14,166 bases of DNA. It comes from a virus. The DNA is taken from UHGV virus genome UHGV-1657835, one strand, 5' to 3'. A model generated the notes under the pieces. The model saw nothing but the letters and a program-made list of their open reading frames with translations. It ran no database searches and had not been told where the DNA came from. Below are positions 9,164 through 11,020 of the stretch, one piece after another (position 1 is the first letter of the stretch; every line of letters starts with the position of its first letter). A program made the position numbers and the translations under genes.

Positions 9164-9837
9164 GCTGCACCATCACCTTTCACTTTCATCAATGTCAGGT
9201 TTCCGCAAAATACGGCACCAGTATCGATATAATGCTGATTCCAGAATGTCTTCGGGCTTTTCACCAGAGTGTGACCAAAGATAAAACGATCTGCGCCCGA
9301 AATTTCGCCACCAATATCATCCATCGAATCACTGATACGCTCGCGCGCCCAGACAACGTTGAAAAGCGGCACCTCCTTACCGAATTGATATTCATTATCC
9401 GGATAGTCGGCATGGGCTATAACGATAGTTTCTTGCCCGGTGTTCAACTCAATGATATAGGGCAGTCGTCTTACCAACTCCACCAGCGCCCTGGCTAATA
9501 TTTCCTGATCAGCGTCCAGCATGAAGAACCATTGACCGCCATTCATTAGCCAGTTATTCACGTTGCCATCAGGACTTAACGCATCAATCATCAGCCGCTC
9601 ATGGTTGCCCATAACCGCTCTGAACCATGGCATCTGCAATAGCTCCAGGCATTTAACATTTTCGGTGCCGCGATCGATAAGGTCGCCGACCGATATCAGT
9701 AAATCCTGCGCAGGGTCAAAATCCACACGATGGAGTTCGGACATCAGTCTGGTGTAGCAACCATGCAGATCACCAACAACCCAGATATTCCTGTATTTGG
9801 TACCGTCGATACGGTGATAAATTGTGGGTGCCATCAT
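9160..9837 (-). CDS. Ser/Thr protein phosphatase, calcineurin-like metallophosphoesterase (lambda NinI / E. coli PrpA-like)
   Basis: Conserved GDLHG, GDLIDRG and GNHE motifs and end-to-end similarity to lambda PPase as I recall it. The ORF track starts it at 9852; ATG 9837 gives an N-terminus of lambda-like length and an ATGA overlap with the upstream stop, so I prefer it. Confidence 0.9.
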
Positions 9838-10460
9838 GTATTCTTCAGCCATTCTTTAAGAGTCATCTGCGGAATACCTCCCATTTTCCCGCATGAAACA
9901 ACGTCAATCTGTTCACGCGCAGACTGGAATAACAAAGGCAGGTGACTTAGATTTTTTGGCGTGCCGCCGGAGTGAACGCGTGGTTCTTGCGTAGCGTCAA
10001 CGCCCACCAGGGCTACATGTTTGAATCCGATATGGAAAGCCAGGTTCAGAGCACCATATGCACTATTGCCACTGGCAATTTCATTCTCATCTTCACAAAG
10101 GCCGAAATGTGCGGACCAGCGCCACGCCCACCACTCGGGAGAATTCGTATTTTTTGGCTCGATGCCGCGTTCAGCCACACGACGGAAGCACAGAACGCCG
10201 TCTCTGACTTCACGTTCTTTAACATCGGGTAGTGCCATGCAATAACAAACACCACGGCGACGGCGGCCACGACCAACGCGCCGCATATTGTCTGGGGATG
10301 GATCAAGGGTGAAAAAATAAGAAGCGCGGTTAAGCCAGTCGATAGCCCCATTGACCGCTATAATCGGCACTCCGCGCGGCGCAACAAAGTTTGCGGCGCT
10401 TGGGCCACTGCCGACGATAATAACGCGATCACTGCCTCTAAATTTATTCTTGGGAAACAT
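9834..10460 (-). CDS. MAF/MptE (DUF115)/GT42-sialyltransferase-like Rossmann-fold protein, paralog 2
   Basis: VIIVGSGPS...IIAVNGA...[25 protein letters not shown] follows the pattern of Campylobacter Cst-II (VIIAGNGPSL...ITSGVYMCAVAIALGYKEIYLSGID). ATG 10460 with AGGAG RBS. The first 34 codons overlap the upstream paralog. Confidence 0.8.
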
Positions 10461-11020
10461 TGAATTGCACTGCTCCTACTTGCATTCAAAATATGTAAAT
10501 CTGCGTGTTTTTTGCGGGTATCCAAGAACTGCTGTTGCCATTTTGAAATAGACACCTGCGTTGGATTCCGTAGGGCTTGAGGGTGCGCACCATGCCAATG
10601 AAGGCCGTTTTGCAGAGAACAGTCATAGCCGACTAATACCACTACTTCAGCCCCTGATTCAGCAGCCAGACTGATAGCCTGCGCGCCGCTATTTACCCCT
10701 TCCGCCGGTCCACAATATCGCCTGTACTCCAACGAAAATGATTTCGCCGCCGCCAGGTTGGCTGTCACTTTGCGGAATCTCCCTCCCGGTATGGTGGAGC
10801 CGTATTGCTTCCACCATGACAAATCACCGGCGTATAAGGCATAAATGTCATCGAACATCTGCCAGGAATTGTTAACCGCGATGATTGAACAGCCAGTTTT
10901 TTCTATAGCAGCACAGTCCTCACGAGTGAGTGACGGACCGCTACCGACACAAAAAACAGTCCTAGTCGCCCTGGGTGGTATGTTCATTCTCAGCTGCAAA
11001 TTCAGCCTCCAGGCGAGCAT
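10358..11020 (-). CDS. MAF/MptE (DUF115)/GT42-sialyltransferase-like Rossmann-fold protein, paralog 1
   Basis: VFCVGSGPSL...IIAVNNS...GVNSGAQAISLAAESGAEVVVLVGYD has the same architecture as the downstream paralog. The longest ORF starts at ATG 11020; an internal ATG at 10987 gives an N-terminus matching the paralog in length and may be the true start. Confidence 0.8.
   Translation of the reverse strand: MLAWRLNLQLRMNIPPRATRTVFCVGSGPSLTREDCAAIEKTGCSIIAVNNSWQMFDDIYALYAGDLSWWKQYGSTIPGGRFRKVTANLAAAKSFSLEYRRYCGPAEGVNSGAQAISLAAESGAEVVVLVGYDCSLQNGLHWHGAHPQALRNPTQVSISKWQQQFLDTRKKHADLHILNASRSSAIQCFPRINLEAVIALLSSAVAQAPQTLLRRAECRL

Follow-up and report, generated by a model that had tools for sequence, protein, structure and literature searches.

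Phages P1 and P7 carry the same pair of adjacent genes, named pmgO and pmgP in P1 and hdmB and hdmC in P7, and their GenBank records (AF234172 and AF503408) annotate an identical overlap of 103 nt between them. The records label the genes as having a 'putative morphogenetic function' (P1) or as 'head morphogenesis' (P7) and comment on neither the overlap nor the fold, and for pmgO and pmgP literature searches turned up essentiality data and gene lists only. Described proteins of related fold include Maf, a flagellin nonulosonic-acid glycosyltransferase of 632 residues (PDB 5mu5), and the Campylobacter sialyltransferases Cst-I and Cst-II (CAZy GT42). Compared with these, PmgO and PmgP each consist of a single domain of about 200 aa, and the sequence E-values against Cst-I and Cst-II are only 0.2-0.7.

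Here we analyse this gene pair in a window of 14,166 nt, the whole stretch taken from virus genome UHGV-1657835. An original prediction had described two tandem ORFs overlapping out of frame and had offered three readings: genuine dual coding, the splitting of a two-domain gene by an indel, or programmed frameshifting producing a fusion. The genes are those of P1 and P7, without material difference, and we conclude that the overlap is the known, correctly annotated pmgO/pmgP junction, and that no gene here is broken or frameshifted.

Results

By sequence, the window belongs to a P1-type phage-plasmid and shows 98% identity to phage P1 (98.3% nucleotide identity across positions 9700-11200), matching the order pmgM-pmgN-pmgO-pmgP-ppp-pmgQ of the P1 reference in near-identical sequence. 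The two ORFs exist as predicted, both on the reverse strand: pmgO (10358..11020) encodes 220 aa and pmgP (9834..10460) encodes 208 aa, and the proteins are 100% and 99% identical, respectively, to those of the P1 reference. They overlap out of frame by 103 nt (10358..10460), with pmgP in the -1 frame relative to pmgO (11020 - 10460 = 560; 560 mod 3 = 2) and pmgO continuing past the pmgP ATG for 33 sense codons and a stop. The neighbouring genes, all on the same strand, belong to the same tightly packed operon: upstream, pmgN (10962..11117, 51 aa) overlaps the annotated start of pmgO by 59 nt, and downstream, the lambda-type Ser/Thr phosphatase gene ppp (9160..9852), which in the P1 lineage separates pmgP from pmgQ, shares 19 nt with pmgP and 4 nt with pmgQ. 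The functionally linked pmgQ (8462..9163) is a gene of the glycosyltransferase family (phrog_1962); in phiNP, JK004 and L007, no ppp separates the PmgP-like gene from the PmgQ-like one. An alternative start of pmgO is possible at Met12 (10987).

PmgO and PmgP, whose structures were predicted separately with AF2, have the same MptE/DUF115-like (Maf / GT42-like) fold, which is common to Maf, MptE and thiamin pyrophosphokinase, and pmgP is a distant paralog of pmgO. The predicted paralogy is clear at the family level, where hhalign aligned 165 columns (probability 98%, E 1.7e-13), and weak between the single sequences, for which BLASTP found the N-terminal VGSGPS...IIAVN region only (E 0.003). 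Against the Pfam family MptE-like/DUF115 (PF01973), PmgO scored 23.4 bits and PmgP 20.9 bits, below the gathering threshold of 34.6, so that neither is a member by that standard; all 50 members of the PmgP alignment match the family weakly (best E 8.6e-7). The PmgP core is conserved from R12/V13 onward (about 10427-10422), in agreement with the predicted position of about 10425. The overlapped PmgO C-terminus had also been said to resemble that of PmgP. The family alignment pairs a short C-terminal segment of one protein with one of the other, and the resemblance therefore extends over about 12 residues and not over all 34 codons of the overlap.

Among 85 independently sequenced P1-type copies (57 haplotypes), there were zero indels and both ORFs were intact. 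Variable sites outside the overlap were mostly synonymous (34 synonymous to 12 nonsynonymous in pmgO and 40 to 15 in pmgP, counted in related, non-independent sequences), and both genes are, by this measure, under purifying selection. The overlap held seven variable sites, all within 10365-10410, every one of which was nonsynonymous in pmgO and six of which were synonymous in pmgP. The stretch 10411-10460 was invariant in the 85 copies (P ~0.008 from the background rate, the haplotypes being related and non-independent). In PLSDB, 581 plasmids carry the pmgO/pmgP pair at >=95% identity.

A scan of genome contigs with a single PmgP sequence yielded 3 loci only and a first viral scan P1-type loci only, while a second scan with a diverged query returned a diverse set. 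This included 19 distinct diverged pairs of adjacent, unfused genes, all of which overlap, by 4, 4, 11, 23, 37, 40 (three pairs), 43, 49, 67, 70 (four pairs), 94, 100 (two pairs) and 109 nt. Comparison of the junctions for a single fused ORF gave two ORFs in all 19 of these pairs and a fusion at one further locus. The downstream gene is in the -1 frame in 17 of the pairs, and in 13 its ATG lies within the Cys-Phe codons. Across 13 junctions aligned without gaps, mean majority identity per codon was 0.83 in the PmgP frame from codon 12 onward, and in the PmgO frame it fell from 0.65 in the helix to 0.15 in the tail. At other loci (L097, L099, L103 and L114) the best PmgO-like ORF is truncated or does not adjoin the PmgP-like gene, and the upstream DNA examined at L109, L110, L115 and L098 (the last with a short flank only) contained no PmgO-like gene. 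Phages D3, PAJU2 and Eowyn and the Caulobacter jumbo phages have a PmgO-like gene only; since many phages carry it alone, an obligate PmgO-PmgP heterodimer is not implied.

The overlap consists of two parts. In the proximal part (10418..10460, reverse strand), PmgO residues C188-L201, which comprise the conserved Cys-Phe and the C-terminal helix, are encoded over PmgP residues M1-I14/I15, a variable leader of low confidence. A 14-residue segment with the final conserved strand and helix of PmgO thus faces a disordered 12-residue leader of PmgP, with an AF2 pLDDT of 96 for PmgO residues 191-200 and 64 for PmgP residues 1-10. Both the conservation of the PmgO family and its PHROG profile end at residue ~200-202. 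Both frames appear constrained at the protein level in this part, and only these first ~43 nt of the overlap look doubly constrained.

In the distal part (10358..10417, reverse strand), the run-on tail S202-L220 and the TAG of pmgO lie over strand 1, the GSGPS loop and the following residues of PmgP. Relatives lack this tail or have a different one, the tail has a pLDDT of 79 and then 61, and its SNPs are nonsynonymous, so that this part does not qualify as dual coding. Its residues are dictated by the PmgP codons, I-I-V being read as L-S-S and S-G-P-S as A-V-A-Q-A in the pmgO frame. In 44% of trials in which the codons of a fixed PmgP protein were resampled, the pmgO frame ran on past the helix for the observed 20 codons or more; the overlap is therefore no longer than chance would give. 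Across lineages the position of the pmgO stop drifts, giving overlaps of 4 to 109 nt. As judged from these comparisons, the pmgO frame runs on by chance through the distal ~60 nt as far as its first stop, adding a non-conserved tail of 19 residues. The predicted dual coding thus appears to hold for the first ~43 nt and fails for the remainder.

The pmgP start is itself embedded in pmgO. Its ATG at 10460 sits within the CAA-TGT (Gln-Cys) codons of pmgO, just before the conserved Cys-Phe motif, and an AGGAG at 10473..10477 (reverse strand), 12 nt upstream, is the likely pmgP Shine-Dalgarno sequence, although this spacing is long. The AGGAG is formed by pmgO Ser-Arg-Ser codons, of which Arg182 is invariant in the PmgO alignment (A7), and it recurs in JK004, with AAGGA in EP_H11. 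An in-frame TAG at 10476-10478 shuts the pmgP frame 16 nt upstream of the ATG. A start downstream of 10460 was considered and rejected, there being no ATG, GTG or TTG before the first beta-strand of PmgP. The ATG at 10460 is therefore the only start codon from which PmgP would include this strand.

Discussion

It is highly probable that pmgO and pmgP are two genes with a genuine overlap and a run-on PmgO tail, an arrangement annotated in both P1 and P7 and intact in all 85 P1-type copies. One could suppose instead that a single two-domain gene has been broken by an indel, either through a pseudogenising mutation or through a sequencing or assembly error, as the tandem paralogs lie in different frames and, in a few homologs, one ORF encodes both domains (P0171, P0249 and P0247). 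Yet the P1-type copies show no indel, hundreds of plasmids keep the pair, both genes are under purifying selection, and the two ORFs with varied overlap lengths in every diverged adjacent pair make two genes the overwhelming norm. Moreover, because the upstream TAG closes the pmgP frame, no single-base change at the junction would join the two cleanly with the PmgO helix kept, and we give the split-gene explanation next to no credence. Among 2133 matches in 1.84 billion representative proteins, P0171 only spans both halves, P0249 and P0247 being two further two-domain proteins seen from their sequences. The junction of P0171 is the only readable one, and it is built differently from that of P1. 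Given this difference, and with two genes as the norm, the PmgO-PmgP fusion looks like a derived state. As the outcome that would refute a split or frameshifted gene, the original prediction had named relatives that keep the two overlapping ORFs together with a complete lack of fused homologs; relatives do keep two ORFs, but rare fusions exist.

Such natural in-frame fusions indicate that covalently joined PmgO-PmgP is tolerable, and this lends some appeal to programmed -1 frameshifting, which would add a fusion of ~44 kDa to the two separate proteins. The pmgP frame is indeed the -1 frame, open from 10475, and two heptamers of the canonical X XXY YYZ pattern, T TTC CCA (10451-10457) and A AAT TTA (10439-10445), stand in the pmgO frame on the reverse strand shortly after the pmgP ATG. 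However, they are specific to P1, being absent from the overlaps of JK004 (about 81% PmgP identity), phiNP and EP_H11, which nonetheless keep the overlap. The minimum free energy of the junction RNA (10340-10480) equals the shuffle mean (z = -0.06), with no sign of a stimulatory hairpin or pseudoknot, nor of an SD-like stimulator suitably spaced upstream; the sole GC-rich hairpin lies ~40 nt downstream of the heptamers as against the 5-9 nt required, and an Rfam scan of the junction gave no match. Slippage at either heptamer would, moreover, put the PmgP leader in place of the conserved C-terminal PmgO helix, whereas P0171 keeps the helix, and the -1 relation is already predicted by an ATGA-type ancestor. 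We therefore judge the heptamers fortuitous and frameshifting very improbable. A functional role for the whole 103-nt overlap, with the PmgO tail S202-L220 selected in its own right, is also unlikely. The tail has the same length in 85 of 85 P1-type copies, AF2 shows a weak helix at residues 211-217, and long tails occur in several lineages (overlaps of 94-109 nt). Against this, all seven tail SNPs change a PmgO residue while six are silent in pmgP, relatives have tails of anything from 0 to about 25 residues, which are unrelated unless a likeness is imposed by the conservation of PmgP (L-S-S), and the falling pLDDT, the end of the PHROG profile at residue 202 and a tail length expected by chance all speak for a run-on.

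For the favoured arrangement of two overlapping genes, we propose that pmgO and pmgP are translated independently within the pmgN-pmgO-pmgP-ppp-pmgQ operon. Initiation of pmgP would take place from the AGGAG inside pmgO, and ribosomes travelling on pmgO may keep this site accessible. The layout may have descended from an ordinary ATGA-type coupled pair, since nearly all of the overlaps are 1 mod 3.

With regard to function, RefSeq names PmgO an 'alpha-2,3-sialyltransferase'. This is probably a label transferred at the level of the fold, as E. coli K-12, a normal host of P1, is not known to make CMP-sialic acid; the fold also includes the pyrophosphokinases MptE and thiamin pyrophosphokinase. 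NCBIfam gave no match for PmgO, PmgP or PmgQ. Membership of the WaaZ (Kdo III transferase) family is not claimed, the only trace being a faint hit at the N-terminus of P0171 (E 2.9e-4; 20 bits, where the cut-off is 200). PmgP-PmgQ fusions are found in P0189 and P0277, in which PmgQ is fused to a PmgP-like domain, and a PmgQ-like gene directly follows the PmgP-like gene in phiNP, JK004, Xoo-sp13 and L007. The rare PmgO-PmgP and PmgP-PmgQ fusions suggest that these proteins act together, and we see about an even chance that PmgO, PmgP and PmgQ form a joint glycosylation module. In such a module, PmgO and PmgP, with their MptE/DUF115 (Maf / Cst-I-like) fold, would act with PmgQ as a complex or in sequence, and our best guess is that LPS or a virion protein would be the acceptor of a CMP-activated ulosonic or nonulosonic acid.

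The LPS core is the P1 receptor. A bolder and doubtful extension is that PmgO and PmgP are the two subunits of a Maf/GT42-like glycosyltransferase that, together with PmgQ, attaches a CMP-activated ulosonic acid, for example Kdo, to the LPS core or a virion protein, and that the pmgP start and Shine-Dalgarno sequence, lying throughout the family in conserved PmgO codons (Cys-Phe and Ser-Arg), are a selected coupling device fixing the stoichiometry. In a weaker variant, P1 might also make a little PmgO-PmgP fusion by slippage at the lineage-specific heptamers. CRISPRi and deletion survey data show the genes to be non-essential (PMC10695390), and the putative PmgO-PmgP-PmgQ module would thus be accessory and dispensable for laboratory lytic growth.

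The overlap lies in one of the best-known phage genomes, and its annotation needs no correction and no frameshift or fusion model. It illustrates well how an extended out-of-frame overlap can be composed of a short stretch under double constraint and a run-on tail that drifts. For pmgO, pmgP and pmgQ, the 'putative morphogenetic' genes of P1, there is fold-level evidence for a conserved, fusion-linked, glycosyltransferase-like accessory module present in many phages, and genes to which no function has been assigned since 2004 thereby gain a concrete hypothesis.

Compared with known systems, the P1 junction shares the -1 relation and the X XXY YYZ heptamers with dnaX of E. coli and with the G/GT chaperones of phage tails. 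It differs from these frameshift fusions in three respects: its heptamers lack conservation, a stimulatory structure is missing, and a conserved structural element would be lost from the product. The closer likeness is to ATGA-type coupled pairs: Xoo-sp13 and L102 show exactly this 4-nt overlap (in L102 as GTGA), and the -1 relation and 1-mod-3 overlaps of the other relatives fit descent from such a pair. In P1, however, the upstream stop lies 103 nt beyond the downstream start, which excludes termination-reinitiation at the start codon as the means of coupling.

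Identity and geometry of the pmgO/pmgP overlap

The pmgO/pmgP overlap is a feature already annotated in bacteriophage P1. Positions 9700-11200 of the window are 96.7-98.3% identical to P1 and P1-like phage-plasmids, PmgO and PmgP are 100% and 99% identical to their P1 counterparts, and the P1 record AF234172 has the identical 103-nt overlap between pmgO (79592-80254) and pmgP (80152-80778), both labelled "putative morphogenetic function". The P7 equivalents, named hdmB and hdmC, are annotated with the same overlap, and the operon order is pmgN, pmgO, pmgP, ppp, pmgQ. The factual statements of the original prediction all hold: ORFs of 220 aa (10358-11020, minus strand) and 208 aa (9834-10460, minus strand) have 10358-10460 in common, pmgP lying in the -1 frame relative to pmgO, and the conserved core of PmgP begins at R12/V13 (~10425). 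The two proteins were also held to be paralogs; single-sequence BLASTP recovered the N-terminal VGSGPS...IIAVN motif only (E 0.003), and the family profiles align over 165 columns, C-termini included (98% probability, E 1.7e-13). The claimed resemblance of the overlapped PmgO C-terminus to that of PmgP extends over about 12 codons and not over the rest of the 34.

The entire operon (8462-11117, minus strand) is packed by overlaps: pmgN and pmgO share 59 nt, or 26 nt with Met12 (10987) as the pmgO start, pmgP and ppp share 19 nt, and ppp and pmgQ 4 nt. The pmgO start is uncertain, residues 1-20 having a pLDDT of ~52 and homologues beginning nearer the first strand. The name 'norphogenetic protein', a typo for morphogenetic that stands in the AF234172 note on pmgM and is seen in NC_005856 and NC_050152 among others, has spread across RefSeq, NCBI and UniRef names of PmgO/PmgP homologues in many genomes.

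Constraint within the overlap

The overlap is a genuine one, but only part of it is constrained in both frames. In the family alignment PmgO is conserved through ...C-F-P-R-x-x-L-E-x-x-L, to residue ~200-202 of the window protein, beyond which the tails are 0 to ~25 residues long and mutually unrelated; the PHROG profile phrog_4603 ends at PmgO residue 202. The AlphaFold models agree with both, mean pLDDT per 10-residue block being 96 for PmgO residues 191-200, 79 for 201-210 and 61 for 211-220, and in PmgP 64 for residues 1-10 and 86-98 per block for the remainder. Across 13 gap-free junctions, mean majority identity per codon falls in the pmgO frame from 0.65 over the C-terminal helix to 0.15 beyond it, and is 0.83 in the pmgP frame from codon 12 on. 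The PmgO stop position differs between lineages, and similarity among the tails is imposed by PmgP: the sole 'conserved' tail motif, L-S-S, is what the pmgO frame makes of PmgP I-I-V (ATT ATC GTC). Nor does tail length need special explanation: with the PmgP protein fixed and codons drawn from local usage, 44% of 20,000 trials left the pmgO frame open over the observed 20 codons or more (median 12).

Variation was followed in the 1187-nt pmgO-pmgP segment of 84 P1-type loci and the window (57 haplotypes, at least 97% identity). Outside the overlap, synonymous variable sites exceed nonsynonymous ones in pmgO (34 to 12) and pmgP (40 to 15), so both genes are under purifying selection. The seven variable sites within the overlap all lie at 10365-10410; every one is nonsynonymous in pmgO and six are third-position silent in pmgP. 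Positions 10411-10460 are invariant across the P1-type copies (P ~0.008 against 101 variable sites in the 1084-nt background, a value that is indicative only, as the haplotypes are related).

The pair is present at 95% identity or above in 581 PLSDB plasmids, in a few of which IS5 or IS26 interrupts it. Such interruptions by IS5-family or IS26 elements, as in the P1-like plasmids NZ_OY754444.1 (H122) and NZ_AP028823.1 (H130), are consistent with dispensable genes. A protein cluster of 48 member sequences (P0122, 174 aa) corresponds to an A6-to-A7 insertion at 10508-10513, in pmgO codons K170-K171, that shifts pmgO into the pmgP frame and ends at the TAG at 10476-10478 (...RKKTRRFTYFECK*). It creates no fusion, and is due either to homopolymer miscalls or to genuine decay of a gene that can be dispensed with.

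Rival readings of the junction

Searches of phage records at the protein level, together with two viral-contig scans, gave diverged loci that include phiNP, EP_H11, IME392, JK004, Xoo-sp13, a Pantoea plasmid and ~25 uncultivated viral genomes. Comparison of the junction in these relatives, as the original prediction had proposed, gave two overlapping ORFs in all 19 distinct non-P1 loci with adjacent unfused PmgO-like and PmgP-like genes, alongside rare fused homologues elsewhere. The overlaps measure 4, 4, 11, 23, 37, 40 (three loci), 43, 49, 67, 70 (four), 94, 100 (two) and 109 nt, so that the 103 nt of P1 falls inside the family range. The PmgP-like gene is in the -1 frame in 17 of the 19, and in 13 its ATG lies within the PmgO-like Cys-Phe codons (xxA TGy TTy), which is why most PmgP homologues start M-F or M-L. 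The overlapping layout is old, being kept at ~40% PmgO and ~55% PmgP identity. At four diverged loci the best PmgO-like ORF was non-adjacent or truncated, and the upstream DNA fetched for four more contained no PmgO-like gene. Many phages, among them D3, PAJU2, Eowyn and Caulobacter jumbo phages, carry a PmgO-like gene alone, which in D3 sits between the major capsid and head-tail connector genes. The annotation divides the D3 gene (3837-4555) between two overlapping ORFs, orf6.5 and orf7; by tblastn, PmgO residues 20-198 align in a single frame (4001-4534), and the annotation probably mis-starts it.

That the pair is a two-domain gene broken by an indel, or by error, is not supported. Fused homologues do exist: a word-indexed search returned one protein, P0171 (376 aa, from a 62-kb phage-like contig), in which a PmgO-like domain leads in frame into a PmgP-like one, the next gene being PmgQ-like, and two MptE-like domains can be read in P0249 (413 aa) and P0247 (442 aa). 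Yet among 2133 matches to P0171 from 1.84 billion representative proteins both halves were spanned by P0171 itself only, and the 84 P1-type loci and the window contain no indel in the segment and keep both ORFs intact, under purifying selection. The P0171 junction, the only one readable, retains the PmgO helix and has a short leader of 5 residues with an ATG and a GAAGGA of its own; gain or loss of a single base in a P1-type junction would thus not produce it. Fused forms are, as far as sequence searches reach, rare and scattered, which favours a two-gene ancestor whose genes fused now and then over a two-domain gene that was split. PmgP-like and PmgQ-like glycosyltransferase-family domains are likewise fused in P0189 (401 aa) and P0277 (396 aa), and the fusions suggest joint action of PmgO, PmgP and PmgQ. 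In Xanthomonas phage Xoo-sp13 the PmgO-like/PmgP-like pair is directly followed by a 449-aa protein (4124-5449) whose C-terminal half is the PmgQ-like domain; ppp seems to have been inserted between pmgP and pmgQ in the P1 lineage.

Programmed frameshifting into a fusion, the other mechanism proposed, is very improbable. Two heptamers of the X XXY YYZ pattern, T TTC CCA (10451-10457) and A AAT TTA (10439-10445), do lie in the P1 pmgO frame just past the pmgP ATG, but both are absent from JK004, phiNP and EP_H11, and a slip at either would exchange the conserved PmgO helix for the PmgP leader. Moreover, dinucleotide shuffles fold just as well as the 141-nt junction RNA (z = -0.06), whose GC-rich hairpin starts ~40 nt downstream of the heptamers, and Rfam gave no match for the junction.

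Possible function

Both models have the MptE/DUF115 fold. The structure matches of the two predicted models include Maf glycosyltransferase (5mu5; 13.9 and 12.9), archaeal MptE pyrophosphokinase (8sd5; 11.3 and 12.9) and Campylobacter Cst-I (2p56; 10.9 and 10.6), with mammalian sialyltransferases and thiamin pyrophosphokinases lower in both lists. Pfam MptE-like matches fall below the gathering score, and the PmgO profile touches both signature motifs of Cst-II weakly (E 0.2-0.7). PmgQ belongs to phrog_1962 "glycosyltransferase" and carries a DLDTVI motif that we take to be DxD-like. We infer that the paralogs act together in a putative accessory glycosylation module, which may use a CMP-activated ulosonic or nonulosonic acid as donor, with a virion protein or LPS as the possible acceptor; pyrophosphokinase-type chemistry is possible. 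Two other proteins join PmgO-like domains to further modules, P0186 (484 aa) with a C-terminal F-G-L-G-D-S-I-Y motif reminiscent, by eye, of heptosyltransferases (GT9), and P0197 (556 aa) with a region resembling, also by eye, an Ig-like (Big_2-type) repeat; both hint at chemistry on glycans of the cell surface or the virion.

CRISPRi scores pmgO, pmgP, ppp and pmgQ as non-essential for plaque formation by P1 (PMC10695390), and so, in the P1 table of that paper, does the deletion survey it cites. The same table lists pmgN as essential by CRISPRi and non-essential in the deletion survey. As pmgN heads the overlapping operon, close to the C1 operator and promoter, its CRISPRi essentiality may be a polar or promoter-blocking dCas12a artefact.

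Translation of pmgP

The ATG at 10460 is the sole usable pmgP start, since no other start codon precedes the first beta-strand and the frame is bounded 16 nt upstream by a TAG. Initiation would use the AGGAG at 10473-10477, 12 nt upstream of the ATG, which is formed by the pmgO Ser-Arg-Ser codons, whose Arg182 is invariant in the PmgO family alignment; JK004 and EP_H11 have comparable AGGAG and AAGGA sequences. Ribosomes translating pmgO would cross this site and reach their stop codon 103 nt later, so any pmgO-pmgP coupling would presumably consist in keeping the site unfolded. In this the P1 pair, with its distant stop, is unlike those relatives with a 4-nt overlap, in which coupling would proceed by termination-reinitiation.
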